Origin: a virus
Length of the DNA stretch: 64,000 nucleotides
Direction: 5' to 3' (one strand)
IMG/VR virus record: IMGVR_UViG_3300045988_148502
The notes under the pieces were generated by a model that saw only the letters and a program-made list of their open reading frames with translations, was not told the origin of the DNA and searched no databases. Both the position numbers and the translations under genes were made by a program. The first letter of the stretch is position 1; the number at the start of each line of letters is the position of its first letter. Below, one piece after another: positions 43,523 through 59,698 of this stretch.

Positions 43523-46500
43523 CTATTTACGGGTTTTGTTCATTTCTTCTATCATTTCCTTTTTGAGTTCGTTCAACTCGGCTTCAATATCCTTGCGTTC
43601 CTCGTCACTGATTGCTTCTTTTAATTCATTGTAGAGGTCGTCAATGTCTTCACGGTAATCCTCGAAGATTTCGTAACGCTCGTATTCGGGTGAATTGTAA
43701 AGGAAATCAATCTTTTCCGCATAGTCAAATATGTCGTTGTCGGTATCTTCTTCATAGTGCTTCAATCGGGATTTCAACCGGTCATGCTCCTCTTTCAATC
43801 GGAAATACTCATTGTTCACAGCCCTGTACTCGGTGCGTTCGTCCCCGGCTTTGACCAGCCTGTTTGCCAACAAGAAGCTGCGAGGGTCGTACTCACGGTT
43901 GCCTGTAACGGTTTCTACCATCTTGCTCAACTTGTCGATTGTTCCGAACACGCCACCGAAATAACCGTTCAGCATATATTCAATCTTTGCCGGATTAAAG
44001 TCAATCGTTCCTTTTGTATATGGGTCTCCACCCGTAGCTTCATTCATGGCATTGGCCAATCCGACAATGTATTTATTGGCACTCTTATACGCCTTTGTCC
44101 ATTCGGGCATATCTTTGTTGTAAGGTGTGTCTTTATAAAGTGGCATACCCGTCCAACTCTTTTCTGCAACGTAGGCTTCCCACAAGGGTTTGTAGGCACT
44201 CGGTACAAAGGCATTCAATCCTCCGCCGCCCTCCAAGAAATCAATAGGTAATATCTGTGTAGCCTGTCCTGTTATGGCTTCGGCAATTTCTCCGTCTGTA
44301 AGATGTTCCTTTCCGTTAAGGACGGAAATCATCAGTTCGCCCATACCGTAAACAGCCCTGTATTCTACCGGAAGAGGAATTGATACCCAACTGTTTCCTG
44401 CCCTGAAAAGAATATTGCTGCGCCTTACATATTCGGGAAGATTATAGTATGCGTTCTTGTCATCATCGTCATCATCATCGCCACCCAAGTAGGCAACAAT
44501 GGCACCAAGAAGGAACATCGCCGCAATACCTGTAAAAGCTTTGGCAGGATGGCGTTTCATCTGTCGTCCAAAGTTTGCCGTACCTTGAATGGCTGCATTC
44601 CAAAACACATAGCCGCTACGACCAAGTCCCGATACCAATGCACTGGCATTACCAGCCTTTGTCTGCCCTGTACTGTCATAGAATTTTGCTCCGCTGCCTT
44701 TCTTGTTGAAGTTTACGCTTATCTCCTTTGCATCATAGATGGCTCTGTCAATGCTCCGGCCCATTTCGCGTGATGTCATGAAAGCGGCAAAACGGGCGCA
44801 GTTCTCAACGGCTCGGTTGTACTCATCGAAACGTCCGCCCAACAAGTCCCATGCTTTTTTTACAGGAATCTTGCCGTTTGATTTTTTCAGTTCCCTGCGT
44901 ATGTCGTTCTTATGTTGTTCAATGTCCCGGATATTGGCATAGCCTGTTTCTCCTCCGTTCATCATGAACTGATGAAACATCGCTTCCGTCTTGTTACTCA
45001 TGTCAAGTGTCCCTTTGCGGTGCTTTGCCAAGAGTTGCTTTATCCTTACAGGATTGGCATACATATAATTGCGATGAAAACGAAGTGCGTAGTTCGGGCT
45101 TTCCCTTATCCAAGTCATGGTGTTGGTGTATAGCATATCTCGCATGAAGTTCGATACGATGAAGTCCGGGTTGCGTGTGGTATAGAACGCACTCAACTGT
45201 CGGTTGATGTTTTCACCGGCACGGAGAATGGCCCCGATTGCCCCCGACATATCGTTGTCGGGATTTGTCTGTCCGTTCAATGCTTGTGCCGCACGTGGAT
45301 TGCCGTTTATGGTAATCACATAGTCCCTGCCGCCACGCTTCACTACAATTTGGTGCTGCCTCATATCCCGGCTTTCCACAATACGGTAAGGAATATTCAC
45401 GGTATCTTTGCCATGCTTGTACCGGTCAGGATATTGCTGTGCCAATGACTCCATTTTAGTTTCAAAGTCCAGCATCTTCCGTTCCACCACTTCGGGAGTA
45501 TCTGTACTGTCTATGTTGTCAGGAAACACTGGCTTCCATTCGTCGGCCACCGTATCGTATTCTACCCAAATGTCGCTCACACTGACAAGGTCGCTCGGAT
45601 GGTTGAGGGCGAAATTAAGGAAACGCTGTTTTACCAATTTGTTCCGGTTGCCCTGCATGATAGCACCTTCTGCCATTGATTGCAGGTTGGCAAACGGGTC
45701 ATCCGCTTTCGACCTGCGTCCTTCCGCTTTCTTGATAGGAGCATTGAATGCACTTTGCTTGTGCGTCAGATATGCGTATGCTTCAGAACTGGTCTTTTCG
45801 TCAAAACCACGTAGCGGAATGTAAAAATCATACATATCTGAAATTTTATCAAAGGTCGCTTTACTCATCATGCCACATTCGTATGACTTTGAAAGTATTG
45901 CTTTGCTCGCGGCATTGACTTTTTTCCAAAGGTCGGTAGTGTCGTGTGCCTGTTCGTAATCGTTAACCATTATCTGTGCTTCCGTTTCGGCATCAGCAAC
46001 ATTATCCATACCTGTAAGGGCTGTAAGTCCGGCATAGTCGGTTTGGTCTGCATCGGTTGCTCCGTTATTGATTGCTTCATTACGCATATATGTATTGCGT
46101 TCAAGGCCGTGTTTCGCCATCATGTAATCAGTCAATTCCTCACGCTCTGCCTCAGTCCTGGCAAGTTTGGCAACCTCATCAAGCATGGGCTTGAACAGGG
46201 TGTGGGCAAACGCATCGGCTTCGGCTTTGTTCACACTTGACAGACGGTTTTCTCCCAAGTATGCGTTTTCAAATCCGTCCACATCCTCAATGTTTGTTTC
46301 CTTGCCAAGGATTGCAGTCATGGCTTCTTTCAAGCCGAGCATACTGTCCTGTAATGCTTCCTGTGATTGGAACATACCGCTTTTTACACGCCTTTCATAA
46401 CGGTCACGAGCCAACTCCCTTTCATGTATTTCCGGGTCACCGGTACGGTATAGTGCATCATCACTTTCTGCAACAGTCTGATGATGTGGGTCGGAAACCG

Positions 46501-49500
46501 CATAATTTCCGACTTTCAGTTCATACTGCTTTGCCACATCAGCGGCTTCTCCCAATATGTTTCTGTATCTGCCCGGTTCCGCAAGGTTCTCGTAACTGCG
46601 CCACAAGATGTAGCGAAGTTCGTTGTCCGATAGAGTAACCCCTCTGAAATCCTCAAAGCCTATCTTATGAAGCATATTCAAGAAGAAATCCTTTATCTGT
46701 TGCCACCAACTTGCGTTGATGTTCTCAAATTCAGTATCTTCTGCAAGCGAAGCAAGATATTCTTCGGTAGCCTTATGGAAATCCCAACCGTTTTTTGCAG
46801 CCATATCTACAATGCGTCTGCGTATGTTCTCATCGGCATTGTTGAATACATTATCAAGGAATGTATCAAAATGTTCTCCGAACAACTGGCGCAAACCATA
46901 GTGCGCCACAGCCTCATGCAGCAGTGTCTGTTCAACATCAAACGTACTTGTATGGTTGGGAATAACAATGGTTATCTTCCCTGTACTCTTCGAGTAGAAG
47001 CCTTTTGCACGCTGCTTCTTTCCATCCAAGACGGAAGCATCAGTAACAACCTCCACATTGTCAAGATGCAGTTTCTCTGCAAGGCTTTCCACACGTTCTG
47101 CCATTCTTTGGCGTTCACGCCGTGCAAATTCCCTCCGCTGCTTTGCCGTTCTCCTTGACTGACCGAGCAGCTTTGCCACTGGGTCATTCTCATAACTGAC
47201 TTCATCATCGTTATATGCACCAATGCCGTTACGTTGGAGAATATCAGTTGTGTCATCCTTTACTTTTACGCCTAATTTGGCAAGTTCCTTGACAACTTCT
47301 ATTATGCGCTCCTCGGGAATATCCGCACGCAACTTTCCTCGGTAAGGGTAGAAGTTTCCACCTGCGGCACGAAGCAAGGTTTTGTTCTCGTAGTAAACCG
47401 CACCGTCTTTCTTTGTCTTTGGAACAGTGAGGTAGAACATCTTTGCCCAACTGTTACCCATAATCTCGACCTTTCCATCGTGGCTTGTTATAGGAGTATA
47501 GTCTTTTATCTGTTGTAAACGACTGCTCAATGGAGCACCGCTCGTTTTCAGCATAGAAGCATTCCATTTGTCGGGCATTAAGATACCATCGTGAACATTA
47601 CCGTCAATGTCTGTATAACTAATGAGTTGTCCAGGATAGCCTCCGTATTCATCTTGTGTATCGGCTATAGCCTGCAAGATATTACCTGTCATAATGAAAC
47701 CTGTCTTTCGTGTCTCACTTGGTATCTGACTATCCCAATTATCAAGTGTGGTGGCACGTGCAGCATCCCAATTATCATTGGTTACCTTGTCAATGCTTCG
47801 CAACGCATCAATCTGTGAAAGTTTAATTTCAATACGTCTGCGACCGTCAAGGGTAGCAAATACCGCAAGTGTTGTTGAGGCTGTAATCTTGCTATCCTTT
47901 GTTTTGTAGCCACAGAAGATAGCAGAAGTAGCAAAGTCGAAAATCATTGACTCAAGGTTATCGGGCACAAGATAAGACTTGCCAACTTCAAACATTCTCA
48001 AGCGGCGCATCATCTGGTCGCTGTTCGTGTTGAGTCGCAAGATGTTGTCCTTATGCTTTGCCTCTACCTTTTCATTGGTCTCTGCGATAAAGTTATCTAT
48101 GGCAACACGCTTTTCTTCATCGCTGCGTTTCTTCTGACCATTGATTTTTTCTGTCTGCTTGGCTATGTCGTCAATGGCTTTTGCCTTTGATTTCTCGTAG
48201 CGTTCATCTTCTGCAGCAATTCTAACTTCGTCCTCCTTGCGGATAGTTTCAATAACATTGTCAAGATAGGTATTCGGCTCAACACCCTTGTTTATCTGTT
48301 CTATTACCTTGCGTATCTCATCCGCTTTCATCGGCTTTCTCAACACATCCATTTCCACCTTTTCAACAAATGAATTGCGAGCAAATGGATTGTTTCCATC
48401 AGGGTCTATGCCCTCAGAAGATATGCGTTTCTCGATAGTCGTTGCGCGGAGTGGCATTACAGTAATCTTTAAGTCGTTACTGCCGGTATCATTGAGATAT
48501 TTAATCAATTCGTTATAACGCCTTACGACATCATCGTAAAACTCCTCCTGCTCTTTTGTTGCCAATAGAGCGACATAACCTGTAATCTTGCGTGCATCAT
48601 CTTCTTGCGGTTTGTAATCTTCAAGTTCGCTTGCCTGCACACGACCACCTCCGAGTCCTCCCTTTTTCAAAGGAGTACCCATTTTCTCGTATATATCTAC
48701 ATTATCACGAAGATACTCAACAACAACTTGACTACCATACTTGTTGAGTAAATCCGGTGCTTCCACATCATTACTTTCACTATCCTGTGAGGTCGTGGTA
48801 TTAGCGTTCAACGATTTCAGTTTGGTGGAAAGCATCATCAGGAAACGGTTCTCGGCGGGTACAGGCAAACCGAGGTTGATGTAATAACCTCTATGCACCT
48901 GTCCTGTACGGTCTATACGTCCTATCATCTGCATATAGTCGTTAATATCGCTCAGCGGCTGTGCTATAATCATAGAACGCTGACGTTGGTCGCTGAATTT
49001 CTCTGAAGCGTGCAAACTGATACCTGTTGATGCAGACTTGTTGAGGATGAGGACATCAAGAACACCACTGTTGAACTCTCTCTGCATTTTCTTTTTGTCT
49101 TTGTCAGTTCTACGCTTGACAACGACACGTCCGTCATCGTTGCGCTCAACATACATATTACGTCCTGTCAATTCACCTACTTTGTATCCTTTCTTGTTCA
49201 GACGCTCGATAATGGCATCAAGTGGACTGATAAAGATATCGCTTGTGCTTTCACGAATGAAATCCTGCAACTCATAATATGCTTTTTCTCCTGCCGGACC
49301 TAATGCCTGTGGAGAATATCGCTCGTGGCGTTCGTTACCGTCCTCATCTTTGACGGTGTACTGCATAACGGTGTCAAGTCCTTTCAGTAGGCTTGCACTG
49401 AATGTTGGCTCATCAATGATTTCTCCTGCGGCATAGTCCTTAATACTGCTCTCCATTGTGCTTTCCAACGCAATAACAGGGTGGCGACCTGCATTGATTT

Positions 49501-52500
49501 CGCCTTCCACTTCATCTGCAATAGCATTGACTTTGAGGGCAAGCATAAGCTGCTTGGTGTAGTTGTAGGTCTTGCTTGCAAATGGCACGTTCTCAACGCC
49601 CATTTTATCTGTGCCTCGCTTCACACCTGCGCTCTCTGCCATAACAGCAAGTTCCATATCCAATGCTTCAATCATCGGCTTTACGTAGTCCTCTTGGAAT
49701 TTGATAATGGCATTGAATGCTGCTATGGTACGGTCGTAATTCTCTCTTGCACGTCTAACAGTTTCGGGGTCAGTGATTGTTTTCCAATCGGTAACAACAT
49801 CGCTCATATCTCGCTCTCTGCGTACCATTTGCCCTGCATTAGTCAATTCACGACTCATAATCTCTTGCAGAGTTACACCGCCTTTCTCAATGATACTAAT
49901 CATCTTATCCGGATCAACCTTTGCTTGGCTCATCGCTGTACGAATTGCATACAAAGGCATTGTGTCGGGACGCTTTGCGAACGTAGCACTTGCAAATGTG
50001 GCGGCTTTCGCTCCACGAAGAATACTTTGCAGATAGGCACCTGTATTGCTCGAACCTGCCGCCGTATGACTTTCATCAAGGAACAGATAGTTATCCTTTG
50101 CAATGGCACGTAAGAATGTGGCTTTCGGGGTAGCCTTGCCATTCTTCACGTTCTTGCTTTTCTTGGTGCGTGCGCCACTCTTTTTGGCAGCTTCCTCCAT
50201 TTCTTGCTGACTGACAACATCGCCAGTGTTTACCTGCGAATAGGTGAGTACAGCGAAGTCATATTCTTCGGGCAATGCTCCCGATGCAAAGACTTTTGCC
50301 ATTTCTGCGGAAGATAGAGGTTTGTGTACTGTATTACCTTTGCTATCAACCATAGCACCGTCAGAGTTGAATATAAACGGCACGAGGTCTCCACTTCCAA
50401 CATCTACCAAGTCTCGGTAAATATCGGAGAACAAGTCTGCTTTCTGTGTGATGAATACAGGTTTCTCACCTCGTTGCACTGCCCAACGAATAAGTGCTGC
50501 CATTTGGCGCCCCTTACCAACACCAGTTTGGTCGCCTATAATAAGGGCTTGTTCCTGTTTCATCTGATAGATTGCCATAGCGACACTGTCCATCTGCTCG
50601 GCGGCAAGTGCTTGATACGTTTCAGCAATGGTATCATATCCGAGTTCTGTCTTGACAAATTCATCTATGCTGCCGTGCTGTGCTTCAATTTGAGAAAGCA
50701 CTTTATCCATTGCCTCGACCATAGCTGCGGGGGCAACGCTTTCAAGTCTGAATGCTGTATTATGAGGACGATAAGGAAGTTTTTCTTCAGTCAAATCTCT
50801 TTTCTTGGGTTTTCCTTTTAATCCCAGTCCGATTCGTTGAACGTCCACTCCATCCACTGGCTGAGGCTCATTTCCCACAGTTCGTTGTTCAAGTCCTCTT
50901 CCGTCAGTTGAAGGCTTTCCAATGGTATCAGTTCCTCTCCCGGTCTCGCCAACTGTATCATTCTGTCCACGTTTTCCCAATACAGGTCGTTGGCCGCTCT
51001 CAGAGTTTCCCTCCAATCCGGTTCTTCCTCTCCGTTCTGTTTGGCTTCCACTCTCATCATCCGCCTCAGATTGTCTATTATGTCCTGCTCCGTCAGTTTC
51101 CCCGGATGCGTTGTCAGCGACAGACAGATGTCGCCCTCCTTGGCTACGTAATACTTCTGTTCCATTTGTCTTTTCATTAAAATTCAATACTTCGTTAATA
51201 ATCTCGTACAGGTCGTCAAAACTTTCAGCCTTGCGGATTGCTTTGTTCTCCACAGGAGGGTATACGGCAGTCTGCGCCCGTTCCTCATTGGTTCTGCGGC
51301 CATCTATCAGTATCATACGAGTGGGGAATGTTGTACCTTGCTTCGCATACAGTCCACCGCCCATGTCAATAACGCCTTTCACGTTATAGTGGTCATATAA
51401 GTAGGTGAAAAATGGTTTCATGCTCTTTATAGCACCATTGTTCGCATACTCCATATTTCCACCGATGATGATAGCGGCTCTGCCGTCATCTTTCATGCTT
51501 GAAAGAGCGTTCAATGTTATTTGCGGGTCAAGTCCCGGTATCTTCTTTCCATCATACTCAACTGCCTCACGCTTTCCGAATGGGGGATTGGCGATAACAA
51601 CATCATAACGCACATCGCCATCGAATGGCTCTGTCGCATCCTGCTGTGTTACTTGTGCAAATCCCTGTTCACGTAGGTTGTCCAGTCGTGTTTTGTCAAG
51701 TTCATTTACATGAACCTGTCCGACTGGAATAGTGAAAACTAACATCCCATTACCCGCAGTTGGTTCTAACACGCTTCCGTCTGCTTTGTCAGCCATTGCA
51801 AATCGGCCGGCAATCCAAGCCATAGGAAGAGGCGTGGAGTACTGCTGCATCTTTATACGGTTGCTGCTTCGTGCCGAAATGGTTGGTTGCATTTCATAAA
51901 GTTTGCAGATTAAATCGTATGATTCTCTGCTAGCACTTCCTTTACGTTCAATAACCTCACGTGCAGCTCTGACCAATCCGTCCTCAACAAGTTCCTGCAA
52001 CAAAATATCAGTTCTTCCATCATTATCTACCTCCATTCCCAACTCACTTGCACGCTTGCGTAGGTCTAAAATGCTTCTGTATGGCTTTGTCCCATTGTCA
52101 AGAGCCGCAAGCATATCAGCCTTTACTGTCATTGCAAATTGGCGATGCAGTTCTGCATCAGCCTTGTCATTTTCAGTAAGTAAATCACCAAATAACCCAC
52201 CTGTTTGATTCCGTGAATTTACTGCTTTTTTCTCATTCTTCTTACGTGCAGGGCGACTTTTTTTGATACGTTCCTGTGCAATCTCTGCCTCTTGCTCCAC
52301 CTCGGTCTCTCTTGTTACGGTTTCGGCGGTAGCAAGCGCATCAATACTTTTCTTATCGAAATTCGCCACATCGAATTGTTGTACCTCATCGTATGGAGTC
52401 ATGTCTGCATCCAGTCCGTTCTCTGCCACCTCCGGCAAATCTCTCGCACCATTGTAAAATGCTTTAAGGTAAGGGCGTATGGCATCGCCCAAGTCTGCAA

Positions 52501-55500
52501 TCATGGCCGTTGCATACTCGGCAAACTTACGTGAACCTTTCTCCAAATGGTAAACAGCCATCTCTGTTCCAATGGCAAGAATCTCAGGGTCTATACCTAT
52601 ATTCATTTGACCGAGCAACTTCTTACGCATACGCTCACGAAGTTCTGCATAACGCTCATCAGTAACAAGACGGTTACCACTCGCTTCAGTCTTTTTCTGC
52701 GAATTGTCTTGTTGTTGCTCACTCCGCATATCGTTGATAAGAGTTCGGACTTCATTAGCAAACTTATCTGCACTATCTTTAGTCAGGAAAATAATATTTC
52801 CTTCATGATAAACGTCTCCACCACGCTTCTCTCCTAAATCCATCACAGCCTGTTTTTCCGCATCAATCATCTTCATCAAAGTACGAACAGAATATCTGTT
52901 ATCCATTTCCTTGTCAACAACGAAATCTGTCCTTTTGTCACGAATTTCATCCTTTGCCTTGCGATCAAGTTCTCGGGTCTTAATTTTATTTTCGAGCGAA
53001 ATGCCAACTGCATCCAAAACTTCTTGCATACCGTTCTGAGGATTGCGAAGAATGTCTAACATTTCCTCTGGACTGTTGGTTGTCTGACGAAAACGTGCAT
53101 CACCAATAGGTATGGAACCGCTCACATCATCACGACTTAATGTAGTTTCCCCTGTTTCTTTATCAACAAAAACAGAGTATTGCCATATAGGAGTATATTC
53201 CTGCCTTTCCTCCTGCTTCGTGGCTTTCTGTTGTTGAGGTTCTGAAAACTGCACATTGCCGTCATTTACTTCTGACAAATCAGACAAAGACAAAGGTGGT
53301 TGTGATTGTGCATCGGTTGCATATTCTGCCAAGCGTTCAGCATCTTCCTTGCTCCGCATCATGAAGCCTTGCTTTTCCTTGTCCCACCAGCCTTTCAGTT
53401 GTTTGGCAAACATTGTGGTGTGCTTCCGAACAGTATCTCTTAATTCATTATTGAACTCCACAAGGTGCATATCCAACACCTTACCTCTTTTGGTGGTGTA
53501 CTGTGCCGGAGTAATGGTGTATGCAGCATCAGTCGGTGTTGTCGTTTCTTCATTGGAATTGCTTTGTTCTAACTTCCGCTGTTCAGCAAAGAGGTCGTTT
53601 ATTTCGGAAATAATGCGGGCTTCCTCAAATATATCACTCTGAACATGTGCGGCTTCTTGTTCCTTGTGCAGTTCTTCAATGCGTGACTTGATTTCAGAAA
53701 GTCTGTCGACTTGTGTACCTGAACTCTGTTCTTCAACACTTTTGACTGACTTGTATTCTGCAAACGCTTTTGTCTTCCGGTGGCTACTATCTATCCATTT
53801 CTCGAAATCCTCCAAGTTTACGGCAGTTACCACTGTCTTGTGATTATTTGCCCAGTCGCTGTCATAATTCGCGAAGTAAGCTGCCTCGGCATCGTCAGTC
53901 TCATTGAAACCAAGCATTACCTTATGCTCATCAAAGCTGCCGTCCTCATTATACTGGTCCACCACGAACACCCTGCGTCCGTTCCACCCGTCAATATCAT
54001 CAGAGAGGAACACGTCTATGTGGTCTCCATCCACGCCCTCCGTGCCACGAATGTAGCCGTAGGTGTTCTGCATGATCGTTTCCCACTTGTTGCCCTCTGT
54101 GTCTATTCCACTACGAACGGATCCTTTCGGGTTCTCAATGGTGATATTGAATGTACCAACCTGCACATGACCTTTCTTATAATTGCCAGCTTCTTTCTGT
54201 TTCTCCGTAGGAGTAGTATCGGTTTCTTTCTCTGCCACTGCAACAGCATTGGCTAAAGACAAAGATGCATCAATATAATTAAGAACATCCAATAAGTCTC
54301 CGAATGTTTGACCGTCATACTCATAAGCGCTACCTATATAATTACCTTTCGTATCAGGTGCATCAACTTTTATAACTTTATGAGTACCATCAACAATAAT
54401 TGTCTGTTTATAAGTATCGCCATACTTTCCGCTTTCAATCCAATCATCTTCTTGAACTTCAATACGTCTTGCTATTTTTGCACTAAGTTGATTGTCAGTA
54501 TCATCAGAAGACAGCATTTCTTCTTGTGATAAAGAAGATTCTATTTCGCTTTGTCCACCAATGCTTTCAGTTCTTCCTGTATCATCAGTTGTCCCATTTC
54601 CGTTCTCAACTCGTTCTCTTGGCGCAAGAGTTCCATTGCTTCCTTGCTGCCCTCGTTGGCTTGTTGCAGTATCGCCAACCAATACATTGCTTCGTTGTTG
54701 TCCATTGTAATCTAAATTTAATGCTTCTTTAATAGCCTGTACGAGCGTCCGAGGGGTATTGTCCGGTTGTTCGAACAGAGTTTCTTCCTGTGTGCCTTGT
54801 ATAAGGTCATAAATCTTGCCGAATGTATTTTGAATGAAGCTTTGGCTTTCACCTTTATACATTGCGGCCAAATGCAGGACAAAGTTACTGAAATTATCAG
54901 CAGGGAGATAACTTTCCCCAGTGACATCATCCATTTGATACTGGCGTTTCCAACTTTCTACGGCAGTACGTGCTTCCTTGAAGTTCTTTGCCTCTACAAA
55001 CATTTTATCTTGGGACAAAGCATAGTAAGCACGAACGGAATTCTGTATCTCATCTACCATTCGTTCACTGTTCGGACTATCATAATCACGAAAAGCAGTG
55101 GCAAGAATAGCCTTTTGTGCTTTTACCGGCAATACGTTGAACATTTCCTCCAACCGTGTACTACCGTCCTTGAAAATGCTTTGATACATGATACCACGCA
55201 AATCATTCTTGGATTCGGGAGTCAAGTTACCCTTGCTATCAAACGCACTCTTGTATTGTGTGGGACTGATGAAACCTCTTTGGCTCATCCATTTTAGGAC
55301 ACTTGCACCGTTGGCATCCACAAGCCCGGCAAACGACACTTCATCGTCCGAGGCTCTGAGTAACAGGTTGGCAAACGAACGTACTTCGATTCCCATACGC
55401 TGTAAGGCATTTTTCGGTTTGATTCGTTCCACACCTCCGCTTTCGGTGTCCTGTGCTACGTATTGTCCCAGAGGAATAGCCGTAGCATCGTCCACATGAA

Positions 55501-58500
55501 GCATATTTACCAGCACCGGACTTTGTAGGGCAGCAATATCTTCAGCACGCAAACCAAACTCTTCCGCATGGTCTTTCAGGTATTGCCTATATGCTTCGGC
55601 CTGTTCCGGATGGCTTTCCCACATCAGACGCAAGGCATCACTGCGGTTGTTTCCCTGTATAACTTCACCACGTTCGTTTACGGTCGGCGCACCGGTGTAA
55701 GCGGTAATACTCGATGTGATTTCTTCCGGACGAATGTTCCCGGCGATTTTCCGTGCAGACAATACGCTCGCTTCGTCATTTCGTTCCTTGGGTTGCGCTT
55801 CATCAATAAAATGCAGAGGATTACGCACACCTTGGATATGGCTCGGTTGCAACAACGATGCGTCAATCACGGCCACATGACCGGGAGCCAGCACATCATT
55901 GCTGAACTTCACGTTCACCTCTTTACCTTGTACGGTCTGCAATGGTTCTTGCCTGTCAATCTTATGGCCGTTCACACGTCTGTACCCCCTTGCGCGGGCA
56001 TCCTGCGGTGTATCATCCACCATGTCGGGAACTCCGTTAAGGGCTTCACGCTCGACGCGTTCGGCTTCCTCACGCTCTGCACGCAGCTTTTCTTCTTCCG
56101 CTTTGCGTAGGGCGGCAGCTTCATCAGCCATTCGTTTGCGTTCCGCATCCGCTGCCATTCTTCTACGGTTGGCAGTACCGGCTATCTTCTGCCAAGCGAG
56201 CAAATCCTGTTTGGCTGCATCAATCGCCGCTTTGCGTTCTTTCTCGGAAGCAATCTTTTCGGCAATGGAGTTGCCACCTTTCGATTTGGCTTTCTCCAAC
56301 TTCTTCAAGGCTTCTTCCTTGTCGGCAACCATTCCATCGGCTACGGTCTGTGCCATATCCTCATCACCCTCAGTCTGCTCCACAATGGCATCCCAAGCTG
56401 TGTCGCTGTCGGCCTGCTCATATAGTGGATTTCCCTGCTCATCCTTTGGTATTCTCTGCATGGCAGGAATATTTTGAGGGGCATTGTTATCATTTTCGGG
56501 AATATTTTCCGCACCATTGTTGCTCTCATTTTCGGCAGGATGTTCAAATGCCACTCCGTTATGCTCCAACAGCATATTGTCAAGTTCATCACGAGTGAAC
56601 AGGTTCACACGTTTTCCGTTGATAGGAGCTTCGGTAAATACCTCATACTTGCCGTCCGCATCGGCATCTGCTGTGATATTGCCACGGACGGTAACGCCGT
56701 TCTCATCGGTAAGCGAAACAATGTCATTGAGGGCGTATTGTGGTCTTTCAGCCTCTTGCATTTCCTGTTTCCGTTCGGCATTCTCAATGGTTCTCTGCTG
56801 CTCGAACTGCGCCACACGTGCCAAGTTTGCCGCATCAGCCTGTTGCTGTATGGTTTCTTTTGCCAACGGGAAGATATTCACGCCGTCCGATACGTTAACT
56901 GTGCCGTCCCCATTATCCACAATACCGTCTTCGTTGGCTACAATCTGAACCTGTATCTGTGCGTCATCTCCTGTAATGGTGTATGTATCGCCGGGGTTGA
57001 ATGTAACCACACCGTCAATCTTGTCGGATGCTTCCTGTGCGAACTGTTGAATGATAGCCTCCTCCGCTGTCATTTTCTCATCGGACGGGTTCAACGGCTC
57101 ATCAATGTTCAATACGGCATCGGGCGACACCTGTTCAAGTGCGCCTGTTTCCGCATCACGCACAATGATACTGCCGTCCGAAGCCCGGTTGTCAATGCCG
57201 CTGCCGTCTGCATACTGCACAAGGTTTCCACCCACCACATACACACGGCGGTCGTCCTGCTTCATCGTAGCCCCCTGTATCATGCCGGAGGTGCGGTTGG
57301 TGCGTGCGTCAACCATTGCGTTGCTTTGCTCCACACGTGCGTCTATATCATCACGCACACGCTGAATCATGCCGTCATATACCTGTTTGGCATTGAGGTA
57401 GTCAATAACCGTTTCCAACTCGCTTTCTCCCCAAAGGCCATTGTTCCGCATTTCCTCCAATGCATTCATAGGATGTATATCCAAAAAGCCAAGCGTGTTT
57501 TCATCCACTATGGCAGAAACCCTCTGCCGCTGGTAGTCACGCATATTCTTGGCATCGGTCATTTCCTGTGGGTCTGCGAGGTTGTAACCGTCAATGTAGC
57601 TTTCATTCATTGACTGCACATCCTCGTCCTGTTCGCCGCCCCGCTTCTGTGCGAGAGTACCGAGGTTAAAGCCCCTCATCATCAACGAACGCTCCATATA
57701 GGTAAGTATTGCGGCTCTCTCATCGTCCGAGAAATCCTTGTCGTTCACGATACCCTCTGCCACACTTCCAATGTCATCGTTGGTCGTAAGGTCTATTGTC
57801 GCCCTTAACGGCTCCCATATTTCTTTGCCAAGCAATTCTGTTGCACGGGCATCTGCCTTGTTTACTCCGTGCTTCATTGAAGCATACTGTACTCCCGACA
57901 AAGTAGCCTTACCTGCACCCATCAATCCCATAGAAAGAGCCATGCCGCCCCAAATGTCGCCATGGAATTGTCCTGTCGCAAGCAAATTGGTACGTGTGCC
58001 GTCCGGGTTCTGCTGATAAGCATCGTCGAGATTGAGCATGGTGCGCCACAATTGCCCATAGTATTCTTCCGTTACCTCTCCGAAATAGTCGCTCACACCC
58101 ATTTTGTTGAATAACTGATGTGTCTGTCCCATGATACCGTCCAACGCACCTGCATCAGTCTTTGAAAGTACTGCACCGATACGCTTTGCACCCACCACAT
58201 TGGCGAGTTTGCTCATATTTCCAAGAGTAACTACAGGGTCAAGGTGCGAACCGAACATTTCCGAATAGTTTTCAACGATGGCATTGGCTTCTCCTTGCCA
58301 AATGGCATTTCCCCAAGTCTTGTCGTTGGAAAAATCATAGTTTCCGTTCTCATCGACAACCACATCACCGAGTTTCCTGTCAATGATGTCGGCCGTGGTT
58401 TTCCCAGCCTGTACAGTGTTGGTCATCAGCGGAGCACGGAGAAGCAGGTCATCAGCGGTTGTTCCGAGAGCCTTGATAGTCCAGTTGGTGGCATACTGCC

Positions 58501-59698
58501 CCAAGCCTTTCACGCCGTTGTCCTTCACGTATGTCTTGAAGCCCTGTTTGGCCATTTGCTCTACCGTTTCTTTGCCAACCACCTTTGTGGCGGCTTTCGT
58601 TCCGGCTTTGGAAAGAACATTGATACCTTTGAATCCACCGCCTGTAATGCCAAAGTCAAGCATGAATGCAGGCATGTGGCCGGTCATCATACCGGCTCTG
58701 TTCCAAAAGCCGGCGTTCCCGCCATACATCTGCTCCGCCTGTCCTTTGTTGTAGAGTGCGCCCATCATTTCATTGTAGGCTTCACGTTCTCCCTCTGTGG
58801 CATTCTCACCTTTCAGGTCATCGGCGTTCATCATGGTCAATGCGTCACGCATATCGCTCATGCCGAAATCCCAAGTGCGGAAATCTCCTGCCACACGACC
58901 GAAACCACGCCAAAAGCCAACATCGATGCCTTGCTCACGGTCTTTCTGCTCTTCAAGGTCTTTGATAAGTTCCTCCGTTTGACGAATGGCGACATCCAAG
59001 GTACTGTTTTCCTTGTCGCTCATCTGACGAGGAACATAGGTATCTGCTGCAAGTAAGAATCCAAGAGGAGCTGTATTCTTTTTTGTATCTTCTTCCCATT
59101 GCTCATGCACTCTCTTGGCACTTGCCTCTCTTTTCTCTTGCAGCTCTGCAAGTTTCAGCATTGCACGGCGCAACTGTCCGTTTACAGACATATCAGCCGC
59201 CTGTCGGTATCTGAAACTCTCCATGTCGGCAAGTCCCTTGCTGGTGTATCGGTTGCCGAGAGGGGTAATGTAGGTTTTCTCCAGTTTTCCGCTCTCCGGG
59301 TTGAACTGCATTTTCCCCTCTGCGGTCTGTCCGCCGCCCAACGGTGCGTTTTCGTGATACTCACGCATGGTTTCCATACGCTCGTTGAAGCCGTCTATCA
59401 TTTGCTCCGTGCGGCGTTTCATCTGTCCTATATTTGCACTGAAGCGTATTTTATCCTGTTCCGTCAACGGCATTTCTTCTGCTGAAGGAGTTACAGGAGT
59501 TTCAGGTGTAGAGTCCAGGGCAGATTGTTCGGGCTGTTGTTGCTCCGACATGAAAGTCCTGTAGTCTGCCGACTTTACACGATATTTCTTCCCCTCACGC
59601 TCCATGATTGTAGAAGCATCGGGAAAGTCTTTCATAAAACTGTCAATGTGTTCATCACGCACATTGTATTTCTTTCCGTTGTATTCAAATATTGGCAT
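43523..59698 (-). CDS. Giant polyvalent protein (5391 aa): ParB-like, InPase-like, N6-methyltransferase, SNF2/Sno-type helicase, zincin-like motif, C-terminal membrane region
   Basis: Single uninterrupted ORF of 16.2 kb. Domain motifs are listed as separate entries. Confidence 0.85.
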   Translation of the reverse strand: MPIFEYNGKKYNVRDEHIDSFMKDFPDASTIMEREGKKYRVKSADYRTFMSEQQQPEQSALDSTPETPVTPSAEEMPLTEQDKIRFSANIGQMKRRTEQMIDGFNERMETMREYHENAPLGGGQTAEGKMQFNPESGKLEKTYITPLGNRYTSKGLADMESFRYRQAADMSVNGQLRRAMLKLAELQEKREASAKRVHEQWEEDTKKNTAPLGFLLAADTYVPRQMSDKENSTLDVAIRQTEELIKDLEEQKDREQGIDVGFWRGFGRVAGDFRTWDFGMSDMRDALTMMNADDLKGENATEGEREAYNEMMGALYNKGQAEQMYGGNAGFWNRAGMMTGHMPAFMLDFGITGGGFKGINVLSKAGTKAATKVVGKETVEQMAKQGFKTYVKDNGVKGLGQYATNWTIKALGTTADDLLLRAPLMTNTVQAGKTTADIIDRKLGDVVVDENGNYDFSNDKTWGNAIWQGEANAIVENYSEMFGSHLDPVVTLGNMSKLANVVGAKRIGAVLSKTDAGALDGIMGQTHQLFNKMGVSDYFGEVTEEYYGQLWRTMLNLDDAYQQNPDGTRTNLLATGQFHGDIWGGMALSMGLMGAGKATLSGVQYASMKHGVNKADARATELLGKEIWEPLRATIDLTTNDDIGSVAEGIVNDKDFSDDERAAILTYMERSLMMRGFNLGTLAQKRGGEQDEDVQSMNESYIDGYNLADPQEMTDAKNMRDYQRQRVSAIVDENTLGFLDIHPMNALEEMRNNGLWGESELETVIDYLNAKQVYDGMIQRVRDDIDARVEQSNAMVDARTNRTSGMIQGATMKQDDRRVYVVGGNLVQYADGSGIDNRASDGSIIVRDAETGALEQVSPDAVLNIDEPLNPSDEKMTAEEAIIQQFAQEASDKIDGVVTFNPGDTYTITGDDAQIQVQIVANEDGIVDNGDGTVNVSDGVNIFPLAKETIQQQADAANLARVAQFEQQRTIENAERKQEMQEAERPQYALNDIVSLTDENGVTVRGNITADADADGKYEVFTEAPINGKRVNLFTRDELDNMLLEHNGVAFEHPAENESNNGAENIPENDNNAPQNIPAMQRIPKDEQGNPLYEQADSDTAWDAIVEQTEGDEDMAQTVADGMVADKEEALKKLEKAKSKGGNSIAEKIASEKERKAAIDAAKQDLLAWQKIAGTANRRRMAADAERKRMADEAAALRKAEEEKLRAEREEAERVEREALNGVPDMVDDTPQDARARGYRRVNGHKIDRQEPLQTVQGKEVNVKFSNDVLAPGHVAVIDASLLQPSHIQGVRNPLHFIDEAQPKERNDEASVLSARKIAGNIRPEEITSSITAYTGAPTVNERGEVIQGNNRSDALRLMWESHPEQAEAYRQYLKDHAEEFGLRAEDIAALQSPVLVNMLHVDDATAIPLGQYVAQDTESGGVERIKPKNALQRMGIEVRSFANLLLRASDDEVSFAGLVDANGASVLKWMSQRGFISPTQYKSAFDSKGNLTPESKNDLRGIMYQSIFKDGSTRLEEMFNVLPVKAQKAILATAFRDYDSPNSERMVDEIQNSVRAYYALSQDKMFVEAKNFKEARTAVESWKRQYQMDDVTGESYLPADNFSNFVLHLAAMYKGESQSFIQNTFGKIYDLIQGTQEETLFEQPDNTPRTLVQAIKEALNLDYNGQQRSNVLVGDTATSQRGQQGSNGTLAPRERVENGNGTTDDTGRTESIGGQSEIESSLSQEEMLSSDDTDNQLSAKIARRIEVQEDDWIESGKYGDTYKQTIIVDGTHKVIKVDAPDTKGNYIGSAYEYDGQTFGDLLDVLNYIDASLSLANAVAVAEKETDTTPTEKQKEAGNYKKGHVQVGTFNITIENPKGSVRSGIDTEGNKWETIMQNTYGYIRGTEGVDGDHIDVFLSDDIDGWNGRRVFVVDQYNEDGSFDEHKVMLGFNETDDAEAAYFANYDSDWANNHKTVVTAVNLEDFEKWIDSSHRKTKAFAEYKSVKSVEEQSSGTQVDRLSEIKSRIEELHKEQEAAHVQSDIFEEARIISEINDLFAEQRKLEQSNSNEETTTPTDAAYTITPAQYTTKRGKVLDMHLVEFNNELRDTVRKHTTMFAKQLKGWWDKEKQGFMMRSKEDAERLAEYATDAQSQPPLSLSDLSEVNDGNVQFSEPQQQKATKQEERQEYTPIWQYSVFVDKETGETTLSRDDVSGSIPIGDARFRQTTNSPEEMLDILRNPQNGMQEVLDAVGISLENKIKTRELDRKAKDEIRDKRTDFVVDKEMDNRYSVRTLMKMIDAEKQAVMDLGEKRGGDVYHEGNIIFLTKDSADKFANEVRTLINDMRSEQQQDNSQKKTEASGNRLVTDERYAELRERMRKKLLGQMNIGIDPEILAIGTEMAVYHLEKGSRKFAEYATAMIADLGDAIRPYLKAFYNGARDLPEVAENGLDADMTPYDEVQQFDVANFDKKSIDALATAETVTRETEVEQEAEIAQERIKKSRPARKKNEKKAVNSRNQTGGLFGDLLTENDKADAELHRQFAMTVKADMLAALDNGTKPYRSILDLRKRASELGMEVDNDGRTDILLQELVEDGLVRAAREVIERKGSASRESYDLICKLYEMQPTISARSSNRIKMQQYSTPLPMAWIAGRFAMADKADGSVLEPTAGNGMLVFTIPVGQVHVNELDKTRLDNLREQGFAQVTQQDATEPFDGDVRYDVVIANPPFGKREAVEYDGKKIPGLDPQITLNALSSMKDDGRAAIIIGGNMEYANNGAIKSMKPFFTYLYDHYNVKGVIDMGGGLYAKQGTTFPTRMILIDGRRTNEERAQTAVYPPVENKAIRKAESFDDLYEIINEVLNFNEKTNGTEVLRSQGGRHLSVADNASGETDGAGHNRQSEADDESGSQTERRGRTGLEGNSESGQRPVLGKRGQNDTVGETGRGTDTIGKPSTDGRGLEQRTVGNEPQPVDGVDVQRIGLGLKGKPKKRDLTEEKLPYRPHNTAFRLESVAPAAMVEAMDKVLSQIEAQHGSIDEFVKTELGYDTIAETYQALAAEQMDSVAMAIYQMKQEQALIIGDQTGVGKGRQMAALIRWAVQRGEKPVFITQKADLFSDIYRDLVDVGSGDLVPFIFNSDGAMVDSKGNTVHKPLSSAEMAKVFASGALPEEYDFAVLTYSQVNTGDVVSQQEMEEAAKKSGARTKKSKNVKNGKATPKATFLRAIAKDNYLFLDESHTAAGSSNTGAYLQSILRGAKAATFASATFAKRPDTMPLYAIRTAMSQAKVDPDKMISIIEKGGVTLQEIMSRELTNAGQMVRRERDMSDVVTDWKTITDPETVRRARENYDRTIAAFNAIIKFQEDYVKPMIEALDMELAVMAESAGVKRGTDKMGVENVPFASKTYNYTKQLMLALKVNAIADEVEGEINAGRHPVIALESTMESSIKDYAAGEIIDEPTFSASLLKGLDTVMQYTVKDEDGNERHERYSPQALGPAGEKAYYELQDFIRESTSDIFISPLDAIIERLNKKGYKVGELTGRNMYVERNDDGRVVVKRRTDKDKKKMQREFNSGVLDVLILNKSASTGISLHASEKFSDQRQRSMIIAQPLSDINDYMQMIGRIDRTGQVHRGYYINLGLPVPAENRFLMMLSTKLKSLNANTTTSQDSESNDVEAPDLLNKYGSQVVVEYLRDNVDIYEKMGTPLKKGGLGGGRVQASELEDYKPQEDDARKITGYVALLATKEQEEFYDDVVRRYNELIKYLNDTGSNDLKITVMPLRATTIEKRISSEGIDPDGNNPFARNSFVEKVEMDVLRKPMKADEIRKVIEQINKGVEPNTYLDNVIETIRKEDEVRIAAEDERYEKSKAKAIDDIAKQTEKINGQKKRSDEEKRVAIDNFIAETNEKVEAKHKDNILRLNTNSDQMMRRLRMFEVGKSYLVPDNLESMIFDFATSAIFCGYKTKDSKITASTTLAVFATLDGRRRIEIKLSQIDALRSIDKVTNDNWDAARATTLDNWDSQIPSETRKTGFIMTGNILQAIADTQDEYGGYPGQLISYTDIDGNVHDGILMPDKWNASMLKTSGAPLSSRLQQIKDYTPITSHDGKVEIMGNSWAKMFYLTVPKTKKDGAVYYENKTLLRAAGGNFYPYRGKLRADIPEERIIEVVKELAKLGVKVKDDTTDILQRNGIGAYNDDEVSYENDPVAKLLGQSRRTAKQRREFARRERQRMAERVESLAEKLHLDNVEVVTDASVLDGKKQRAKGFYSKSTGKITIVIPNHTSTFDVEQTLLHEAVAHYGLRQLFGEHFDTFLDNVFNNADENIRRRIVDMAAKNGWDFHKATEEYLASLAEDTEFENINASWWQQIKDFFLNMLHKIGFEDFRGVTLSDNELRYILWRSYENLAEPGRYRNILGEAADVAKQYELKVGNYAVSDPHHQTVAESDDALYRTGDPEIHERELARDRYERRVKSGMFQSQEALQDSMLGLKEAMTAILGKETNIEDVDGFENAYLGENRLSSVNKAEADAFAHTLFKPMLDEVAKLARTEAEREELTDYMMAKHGLERNTYMRNEAINNGATDADQTDYAGLTALTGMDNVADAETEAQIMVNDYEQAHDTTDLWKKVNAASKAILSKSYECGMMSKATFDKISDMYDFYIPLRGFDEKTSSEAYAYLTHKQSAFNAPIKKAEGRRSKADDPFANLQSMAEGAIMQGNRNKLVKQRFLNFALNHPSDLVSVSDIWVEYDTVADEWKPVFPDNIDSTDTPEVVERKMLDFETKMESLAQQYPDRYKHGKDTVNIPYRIVESRDMRQHQIVVKRGGRDYVITINGNPRAAQALNGQTNPDNDMSGAIGAILRAGENINRQLSAFYTTRNPDFIVSNFMRDMLYTNTMTWIRESPNYALRFHRNYMYANPVRIKQLLAKHRKGTLDMSNKTEAMFHQFMMNGGETGYANIRDIEQHKNDIRRELKKSNGKIPVKKAWDLLGGRFDEYNRAVENCARFAAFMTSREMGRSIDRAIYDAKEISVNFNKKGSGAKFYDSTGQTKAGNASALVSGLGRSGYVFWNAAIQGTANFGRQMKRHPAKAFTGIAAMFLLGAIVAYLGGDDDDDDDKNAYYNLPEYVRRSNILFRAGNSWVSIPLPVEYRAVYGMGELMISVLNGKEHLTDGEIAEAITGQATQILPIDFLEGGGGLNAFVPSAYKPLWEAYVAEKSWTGMPLYKDTPYNKDMPEWTKAYKSANKYIVGLANAMNEATGGDPYTKGTIDFNPAKIEYMLNGYFGGVFGTIDKLSKMVETVTGNREYDPRSFLLANRLVKAGDERTEYRAVNNEYFRLKEEHDRLKSRLKHYEEDTDNDIFDYAEKIDFLYNSPEYERYEIFEDYREDIDDLYNELKEAISDEERKDIEAELNELKKEMIEEMNKTRK
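46878..46930 (-). other. Zincin-like metallopeptidase motif (tentative)
   Basis: TLLHEAVAHYGLRQLFG. HExxxH spacing as I recall it for polyvalent-protein metallopeptidase domains. Confidence 0.3.
48700..50790 (-). other. SNF2 / strawberry-notch-like helicase domain (DarB-like together with the methyltransferase)
   Basis: Motif I GDQTGVGKGRQ (50505-50540), motif II LFLDESH (50062-50088), motif VI GRIDRTGQ (48903-48925). Confidence 0.75.
50818..51177 (-). CDS. Candidate embedded +1-frame ORF (119 aa, acidic, Trp-rich C-terminus) inside the polyvalent gene
   Basis: ATG at 51177-51175 and TAA at 50820-50818. It spans exactly the low-complexity linker between the methyltransferase and helicase domains. 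Confidence 0.35.
   Translation of the reverse strand: MKRQMEQKYYVAKEGDICLSLTTHPGKLTEQDIIDNLRRMMRVEAKQNGEEEPDWRETLRAANDLYWENVDRMIQLARPGEELIPLESLQLTEEDLNNELWEMSLSQWMEWTFNESDWD
51200..51900 (-). other. N6-adenine DNA methyltransferase domain
   Basis: Motif I VLEPTAGNGMLV (within 51721-51780) and motif IV NPPF (51578-51589, in VVIANPPFG). Confidence 0.75.
53800..54260 (-). other. InPase-like domain of polyvalent proteins (tentative)
   Basis: GNYKKGHVQVGTFNITIENPKGSVRSG...YGYIRGTEGVDGDHIDVFLS (anchor 54001-54060). Confidence 0.35.
55560..55900 (-). other. ParB/Srx-like domain within the polyvalent protein
   Basis: Segments LLQPSHIQGVRNP (55801-55860 region) and GAPTVNERGEVIQGNNRSDALRL (55621-55680) resemble the DdrB-type ParB domains described for polyvalent proteins. 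Recall only. Confidence 0.45.

Follow-up and report, generated by a model that had tools for sequence, protein, structure and literature searches.

The 64,000-nt stretch of DNA analysed here (IMG/VR virus record IMGVR_UViG_3300045988_148502, referred to as the window) represents, in reverse orientation, almost all of the 64,274-bp genome of Bacteroides phage BS-TP4 (PQ571277.1), which infects Bacteroides salyersiae as a temperate phage. Its prevalence in Chinese gut viromes is 31%, and few temperate phages of human-gut Bacteroidales are as widespread as BS-TP4 and its relatives (PMC12694917). Directly upstream of the portal gene lies the giant gene gp3, which is labelled "hypothetical protein" in the GenBank record and is undiscussed in the paper describing the phage (PMC12694917). 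We found that a second protein-coding gene, hereafter called X, is very likely nested wholly within gp3, on the same strand and in its +1 frame, where it spans the linker between a methyltransferase and a helicase domain. The locus comprises the following features (positions in the window; ORF, open reading frame; dN/dS, ratio of nonsynonymous to synonymous substitution rates):

43523-59698, minus strand: gp3, the host gene, encoding a polyvalent DarB-like protein of 5,391 aa (ORF and Pfam domains).
51287-51625, minus strand: N6-adenine methyltransferase core in gp3, adjoining the linker on its upstream side (E = 3e-6 to Pfam N6_Mtase; covers residues 692-804 of a segment that begins at gp3 residue 2001).
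51166-51195, minus strand: putative initiation region of X, A-rich and unstructured (...aatgaaaagacaaATG; conservation, start-site matrix, and fold energy).
51166-51177, minus strand: four extra codons (MKRQ) of a longer, 119-aa version of the ORF, with a genome-specific upstream ATG (no ATG in relatives).
50818-51165, minus strand: nested gene X as predicted, +1 relative to gp3, with 115 codons before its TAA stop (open in all relatives, selection, codon-phase flip).
50819-51166, minus strand: main-frame reading of the same stretch, gp3 residues ~2845-2960, a low-complexity linker without aromatic residues (composition, dN/dS 1.34).
49781-50617, minus strand: helicase N-terminal lobe AAA_34, downstream neighbour of the linker (Pfam, gp3 residues 3028-3306).

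The gp3 protein contains ddrB-ParB, InPase (inorganic pyrophosphatase), N6_Mtase, AAA_34, Helicase_C_4, and LPD38 domains according to Pfam and also carries a zincin HExxH motif. AAA_34 and the following Helicase_C_4 (residues 3492-3745) form a Strawberry-notch-type helicase. With many unrelated domains on one polypeptide, including the methyltransferase-helicase pair, gp3 has the architecture of the DarB-like polyvalent proteins as defined by Iyer et al. 2017 (PMC5512222).

A first-pass annotation of the window had described a 119-aa ORF at 50818-51177 that exactly fills the methyltransferase-helicase linker. The ORF exists as described, with an identical translation, and is located on the minus strand in a +1 relation to gp3 ((59698-51177) mod 3 = 1), with its TAA stop at 50818-50820. 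The main frame across it is indeed rich in Gly, Arg, Ser, Thr, and Glu, and in the alignment of 33 distinct relatives main-frame conservation ends at ...NEVLNxxEK and restarts at ...KKRxLTEEKL, confirming that the ORF occupies the linker. Its start needs to be corrected, since the ATG kept in all relatives is the one at 51165, four codons downstream, which yields a peptide of 115 aa beginning with MEQKYY. The relatives read IQRKRQ-M or STQRKRQ-M before this conserved methionine and lack the ATG at 51177, which is probably not the start of X. The X peptide of the window matches BS-TP4 with 100% identity, and tryptic peptides deduced from its sequence include EGDICLSLTTHPGK and LTEQDIIDNLR.

To follow X across related phages, 35 IMG/VR loci were fetched via the flanking methyltransferase-helicase protein (59-90% identity), and six further loci from bacterial genomes were added via the X peptide family (Phocaeicola massiliensis DSM 17679 (100% identity), P. 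coprophilus, Prevotella, Alloprevotella, and Bacteroidales metagenome-assembled genomes). At the methyltransferase-helicase junction, every one of the 35 IMG/VR loci and all six Bacteroidales genome loci have a +1 stretch of 109-151 codons without a stop, with the giant frame uninterrupted throughout. The X frame stays open down to ~60% identity of the flanks and ~27-35% identity within X. Shared motifs are the N-terminal MEQKYY, the pattern L-S/T-x-T-x-HPGxLT-xx-D-I/V-xx-N-L-x-R-M, and, in most relatives, a terminal EWD followed by the stop codon. Residues M1, K4, Y6, L15, H20-P21-G22, L24, D28, N32, R35-M36, and L79 are invariant or nearly so, substitutions elsewhere in the peptide alignment are conservative, and indels fall into loops.

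The nucleotide pattern points in the same direction. In a frame-agnostic alignment of the flanks, the third main-frame codon position is the variable one (0.4-0.5 vs. 0.05-0.15 at the other positions). Inside the ORF, main-frame position 1 (position 3 of X) is the most variable, and main-frame position 3 (position 2 of X) the least. This phase switch coincides with the borders of X at the resolution of the scan (30-nt steps), and across 4,114 codons of gp3 compared in 28 relatives such flips occur only at X and at a second region, Y, described below. Nei-Gojobori dN/dS values for the linker are 0.31 in the X frame vs. 1.34 in the main frame, and the flanks show the opposite order, with 0.04-0.05 for the main frame and ~2.3 for +1. 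The first-pass annotation had named interruption of the +1 frame in close homologues, lack of selection in that frame, and equally long +1 ORFs in the purine-rich linkers of unrelated polyvalent proteins as outcomes that would speak against a real gene. The frame proved uninterrupted, the selection signal is there, and in the one distant homologue examined, from Acinetobacter phage MD-2021a (27% identity), the linker is acidic and about as long but full of stops in both shifted frames, +1 and +2. The annotation's central claim of a real, selected coding sequence in the +1 frame is thus supported by conservation and by selection.

Apparent counter-examples were considered and set aside. The database entry P0009 is a chimera that runs in the X frame and then in the main frame, probably owing to an assembly frameshift. 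P0008 and P0053 are not interrupted phage copies of X; they are truncated fragments in a bacterial chromosomal setting without a giant gene and are regarded as relics. A stop in the giant frame ~640 nt downstream of X at locus L037 (7007-7061) is an isolated defect, as the near-identical locus L081 is intact.

Two side observations belong to these cases. Truncated X fragments of 56-70 aa (L131:3001-3213, L132, and L133) look like relics of a phage segment; their surroundings are those of a Bacteroidales chromosome, with a SusR-like regulator gene on one side, TetR/FabH genes on the other, and no giant gene. At L037, a metagenomic relative, a new 2,750-aa gene begins 50 nt past the giant-frame stop, which is probably a mutation or an assembly error.

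The main frame across X has a different character. As a protein, the linker contains 0% aromatic and 80% polar residues, and its sequence is not conserved. Its composition follows from the codons of X, because the Glu/Asp/Lys/Asn-rich codons (GAx, AAx) of the nested frame, read one base earlier, give Gly, Arg, Ser, Thr, and Glu. Given the X protein and random synonymous codons, the chance that the main frame would be open is only ~1.6e-5 in this genome (median 3e-5 across relatives). At 47 of the 114 codon junctions of X, a main-frame stop would arise here if the preceding codon ended in T, and across all relatives a third-position T at such at-risk junctions was found in 0 of 1,416 cases. Third-position T accounts for 7.5% of codons in X vs. 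28.8% in gp3 overall. These numbers indicate that selection keeps the main frame over X free of stops, with its sequence left unconserved. In view of the strong selection for an open main frame, we reject both a pair of compensating frameshifts and a gp3 that reads through X by double frameshifting. As the main frame is held open, gp3 appears to be translated straight through. Ribosomes on gp3 would pass along the main frame, in which this segment yields a hydrophilic, unconstrained, and probably disordered stretch that tethers the methyltransferase to the helicase.

X itself has a predicted start site of its own that likely allows independent initiation at 51165. The ATG at this position is invariant in the relatives and is retained even at L034, where the main-frame Asn has changed to Asp. 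The surrounding AAGACAA-ATG-G is conserved at the nucleotide level, main-frame synonymous sites included. A position weight matrix (PWM) built from 62 annotated BS-TP4 starts shows A enrichment at -13, -12, -6, and -3, typical of Bacteroidia. With this matrix, the ATG at 51165 scores 7.9 bits, more than any other of the 464 ATGs in gp3 and above the 6.6-bit median of true starts, and the ATG at 51177 proposed by the first-pass annotation scores 3.2 bits. The fold energy from -30 to +30 is -3.6 kcal/mol (gene-wide mean -10.6 ± 3.7 kcal/mol), placing the X start among the least-structured 1.6% of 60-nt windows (median 1.9%, maximum 5.8% in 33 relatives). Low RNA structure and upstream adenines, without Shine-Dalgarno pairing, characterize initiation in Bacteroidetes (PMC6847099), and the predicted X start matches these published rules. 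AUG triplets near starts are reportedly avoided in Bacteroidetes (PMC6847099). The extra in-frame ATG 12 nt upstream of the X start is found in this genome alone and may slightly affect expression of X here.

Region Y, the only other place in gp3 where the codon phase flips, was recognized by the same scan:

54541-54705, minus strand: predicted nested +1 gene Y, 54 aa (MDNNEAMYWLAILQQANEGSKEAMELLRQENELR...), in a low-complexity main-frame stretch at gp3 residues ~1665-1720 (codon-phase scan).

The Y product is 54 aa long in BS-TP4 and 54-129 aa in relatives, and 25 of 29 loci encode its core, MDNxExMYWLAxxQQANxGxKEAxExLRQExELR, without exception in the +1 frame. The ratio of nonsynonymous to synonymous polymorphism (pN/pS) is 0.33 in the +1 frame vs. 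1.24 in the main frame. Of the 464 ATGs, that of Y takes third place by the start-site PWM, and its surroundings belong to the least-structured 1.8% of windows. Matches of Y to tetratricopeptide repeat-like sequences are all sub-threshold. Y thus appears to be an independent repeat of the signatures of X and strengthens the interpretation of X as a gene. Since the same signatures recur, low-complexity linkers are suggested as a flag for hidden genes. In the IMG/VR relatives L060, L065, L068, and L077, the sequence around the Y region is unrelated.

Y is also found inside gp55 of phage BKO1-TP3, a gene annotated as "DarB-like antirestriction". A comparison of the two giant genes reveals mosaics: gp55 shares residues 64-2591 (78% identity) and 4152-4538 (79%) with gp3, and an unrelated central block replaces the methyltransferase-X-helicase region. 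At the point where the homology to gp3 ends (residue ~2591), gp55 contains a 110-codon +1 open stretch (L109:11479-11808) with a protein-like 87-aa ORF (MDEYTKKVLRLQGHSEKSIAKMELEERIDAACYRHK...). Situated at a module junction, it is a candidate for a third nested gene; its 21 known relatives, with identities of 93-100%, are too alike to reveal selection.

The predicted product of X resembles a globular protein (38% hydrophobic and 8.7% aromatic residues) and is strongly acidic, with an isoelectric point (pI) of 4.26, a net charge of -16, and 27 Asp + Glu vs. 11 Lys + Arg. AlphaFold2, supplied with an alignment of 55 sequences, returned a compact alpha/beta model with a mean predicted local distance difference test (pLDDT) score of 89.9 and a predicted template-modelling (pTM) score of 0.84. 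The model has a hydrophobic, Trp-rich core and a conserved His-Pro-Gly motif, and its confidence is low only at the last few residues, the conserved EWD tail.

An exhaustive profile search extended the X family to 84 clusters at 50% identity, mostly of 100-150 aa, many of which must be the nested form called on short contigs. Others are encoded in different ways. Free-standing X genes (P0061 at L040:1493-1801, P0047 at L105/L106, and P0057 at L107/L108) have no long overlapping same-strand frame and begin at the same methionine as nested X. In addition, X is found as an in-frame domain, C-terminal or internal, in larger proteins of other mobile elements (P0086, P0104, P0115, and P0124). In P0086, P0124, P0130, and P0134, it follows one or two copies of an ~85-aa domain that is also part of gp3:

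52352-52612, minus strand: helical "IRPYLK" domain, ~85 aa, gp3 residues ~2363-2449 (BLASTP of P0086, E = 6e-33, and P0134, E = 8e-15, against this segment).

P0124, P0130, and P0134 are mutually diverged, each belonging to a different 50%-identity cluster. This distribution suggests that X is an independent module of the polyvalent-protein repertoire that is encoded in a shifted frame in the BS-TP4 lineage. Searches of the viral contigs recovered P0086 in the same phages only, as two separate pieces, and no relative of P0134; a tblastn search detected no X in plasmids. Pfam searches of the genes neighbouring X homologues at L040, L098, and L100 returned nothing useful.

The surroundings of several family members were also recorded. 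P0057 at L107 lies directly downstream of a gene for a polyvalent-type zincin peptidase (sub-threshold match). P0124, a 348-aa IRPYLK-IRPYLK-X protein (L098:2445-3491 and L099:645-1691), immediately precedes a complete type I restriction-modification operon comprising two HsdM genes, HsdS, and HsdR. Its relatives P0138 and P0140 carry an unrelated C-terminal domain in place of X.

The far wider distribution of the X reading and the lack of constraint on the linker reading point to X as the probable older reading and to the linker as the newer one. The linker reading was possibly created when the flanking genes fused across an intervening small gene X. A relative with three separate genes for the methyltransferase, X, and the helicase was not found among the loci examined.

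Taken as a whole, the explanation we favour is that ribosomes would start independently at the ATG at 51165 in an A-rich, unstructured part of the gp3 mRNA and end at the TAA at 50818-50820, producing an acidic protein of 115 aa that adopts an alpha/beta fold and ends in a flexible C-terminal tail with the conserved ...E-W-D, that the overlapping main frame would serve as a linker tether, and that X may act as a partner subunit of the giant protein; we consider this combined picture to be likely. For the last element, strict nesting at the domain junction, in-frame fusions to a gp3-type domain, and the conserved, flexible, docking-like C-terminal tail suggest a separately made partner of the giant protein. 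X would most likely be such a subunit, perhaps one that helps with assembly or packaging or that regulates the methyltransferase-helicase pair, and may dock through the conserved tail. Among the functional options, this is the one we would name first, with a probability that falls somewhat short of an even chance.

Several points weigh against this interpretation. The coding status of X is read from the sequence and from in silico analyses alone, and X is without annotation in PQ571277.1. X is the longest off-frame stop-free run in gp3 (121 codons; the runner-up has 95), but given the main-frame protein and the codon usage of the gene, an open +1 frame is expected in ~4% of cases here (median 6% across relatives, range ~2-24%). 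Openness in one sequence is therefore weak evidence by itself, and the case for X beyond chance rests on the comparative evidence. That evidence, in turn, comes from phylogenetically non-independent relatives, and the dN/dS values are simple Nei-Gojobori counts designed for single rather than overlapping frames. Regarding initiation, an upstream +1 stop 6-9 codons before the ATG leaves a short window for entry by frameshift. Regarding function, X has no match in Pfam or NCBIfam, none in PHROGs at E < 0.01 (best E = 0.01, scattered), and none in a sequence profile search of the PDB (best E = 0.08), so that the database and profile searches proposed in the first-pass annotation yielded no family for the peptide; Foldseek comparison of the model with the PDB and BFVD returned nothing with E < 1. 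The partner-subunit idea draws on nesting and domain-fusion logic only, and the AlphaFold2 model of the fusion protein P0124, built from only six sequences, has a pTM of 0.38 and a pLDDT below 50 in its X part, too low in quality to reveal contacts between domains.

If the gene is taken as real, its product could instead be a free acidic DNA mimic of the Ocr/ArdA type that blocks host restriction enzymes, as the first-pass annotation had suggested from its acidity. The acidity itself was borne out, and the context is suggestive: the host gene is DarB-like, with methyltransferase, helicase, and ddrB-ParB domains, the related BKO1-TP3 gene carries an antirestriction annotation, one in-frame X fusion precedes a type I restriction-modification operon, and one free-standing X gene follows the zincin peptidase gene. 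However, gp3 overall is almost as acidic (pI 5.0), which makes acidity non-discriminating, and the conserved residues (His-Pro-Gly, Lys4, Tyr6, Asn32, Arg35, and the Trp-rich tail) form no surface-carboxylate pattern. No anti-restriction family in Pfam or PHROGs and no PDB chain in the Foldseek search (E < 1) matched X, leaving the proposed mimicry without a counterpart in fold or sequence. We regard a mimic function as unlikely.

A programmed +1 frameshift just before the linker could produce a truncated ParB-InPase-methyltransferase protein ending in X, with no free 115-aa protein. Phage genes that make two products by frameshifting are known, X occurs as a C-terminal or internal domain in larger proteins such as P0086, P0104, P0115, and P0124, and the conservation of the nucleotides preceding the ATG extends to synonymous sites of the main frame. 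On the other hand, the ATG is invariant and has the best start-like context in gp3, the free-standing family members begin at exactly this methionine, and Y has the same start-site signatures. The 6-9-codon window in which a shift would have to occur (GAA AAG ACA AAT GGA and variants) revealed no in-frame stop, rare-codon, or prfB-type slippery motif, nor any other known +1 frameshift motif, by inspection, with no dedicated frameshift-site model run. We consider entry by frameshift improbable.

That the ORF is a compositional artefact, i.e. a purine-rich, low-complexity linker that is stop-free in the +1 frame by chance, untranslated, and unselected, is very improbable. The openness expected in ~2-24% of synonymous recodings would allow for it, but the codon-phase flip confined to the ORF (and, elsewhere in gp3, to Y), the dN/dS contrast between the two frames, protein-like conservation with conservative substitutions and indels down to ~27% identity, the confident fold model, the free-standing and in-frame homologues without any overlap, and the stop-rich linker of the distant homologue all argue against it. 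The suggestion that X was once in frame in gp3, and that the overlap reflects compensating frameshifts or sequencing errors in this genome, could point to the in-frame X domains of other multidomain proteins and to the chimeric P0009 but has a negligible probability given the same start, stop, and +1 relation in >40 loci from independent assemblies, among them an isolate genome whose X peptide is 100% identical, and a main frame that is actively held open across X, indicating a stable, selected arrangement.

With X as a nested gene, the largest gene of a prevalent phage, annotated as a single hypothetical protein, would carry at least two additional conserved genes of a kind suppressed by standard gene callers. 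It would provide a clean example of dual coding in a large double-stranded DNA (dsDNA) phage, with a folded protein in one frame and a disordered tether in the other, and a plausible order of origin in which the nested gene came first and the linker reading second. The combination of a low-complexity linker and a codon-phase flip offers a search rule for hidden genes in giant proteins of mobile elements. X also represents a new protein family of 84 clusters, tied to the anti-defence toolkit injected by phages and conjugative elements. A single T-to-C change at the ATG at 51165 would separate the two products, as it is silent in gp3 (AAT to AAC) and turns the ATG of X into ACG. In a broader and more speculative view, giant polyvalent genes of Bacteroidales phages may have been built by bridging small genes. 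Neighbouring genes would fuse by reading a small gene off-frame, the small gene would still be translated independently, and its shadow would become a disordered linker. The nested products would then govern how the injected giant protein folds, is packaged, or acts. That bridging, linkers as a general flag for hidden genes, and nested products as obligate partner subunits all hold together is a tentative proposal that we consider doubtful at present.

Nesting as such is already known, and what is new here is the setting, the polarity, and the protein families. The setting is a large temperate dsDNA phage in which the linkers between domains of a giant polyvalent gene would hold the nested genes; as to polarity, the protein of the nested frame is probably the folded and older one, and it is the host frame that lacks constraint. 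Among the systems available for comparison, T7 Ocr and ArdA resemble X in being small, strongly acidic, encoded by mobile elements, and found in an anti-restriction setting. They differ in that X has no detectable sequence or fold similarity to them (Pfam, PHROGs, and PDB) and is predicted to be a compact alpha/beta protein with a Trp-rich core and a His-Pro-Gly motif. In the P1 Dar system (DarA, Hdf, DdrA, DdrB, and Ulx), small proteins are needed to package DarB. The co-encoding of small proteins with a giant, virion-carried methyltransferase-helicase protein makes this system the model for our suggestion that X is a partner. The P1 accessory genes, however, are separate and non-overlapping, and X has no similarity to entries in PHROGs (E < 0.01), BFVD, or the PDB.

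With the polyvalent proteins, including the DarB methyltransferase-helicase pair of P1 (Iyer et al. 2017, PMC5512222), gp3 shares the many-domain architecture, with its SNF2/Strawberry-notch helicase, zincin, and LPD38, and lies next to the portal gene, and the X domain likewise behaves as a module that can be fused to another gp3-type domain. The difference is that X would be supplied as a separate polypeptide from a shifted frame and not in frame. X is not among the Pfam LPD families. A term search of the polyvalent-protein paper (PMC5512222) gave 0 occurrences of overlapping frames, frameshifts, or linkers, and a literature search on the combination retrieved nothing relevant.

The closest parallels in gene arrangement come from other phages. 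Lambda Rz1 is located inside Rz in the +1 frame, and in phiX174 gene B lies inside A and E inside D, with K as a further example. Fully nested same-strand genes of this kind are well known in phages (review PMC8227390). Like these, X would be a small gene with its own start and stop inside a larger same-strand gene, in a shifted frame, with both frames maintained. In contrast, the host of X is a 16-kb multidomain gene of a 64-kb temperate Bacteroides phage with no obvious genome-size pressure, and X occupies an inter-domain linker in which the nested product is predicted to be folded and conserved and the host frame is unconstrained. A further difference from Rz1 and the phiX174 genes is the wider distribution of the X family, which suggests that here the nested gene is the older reading.

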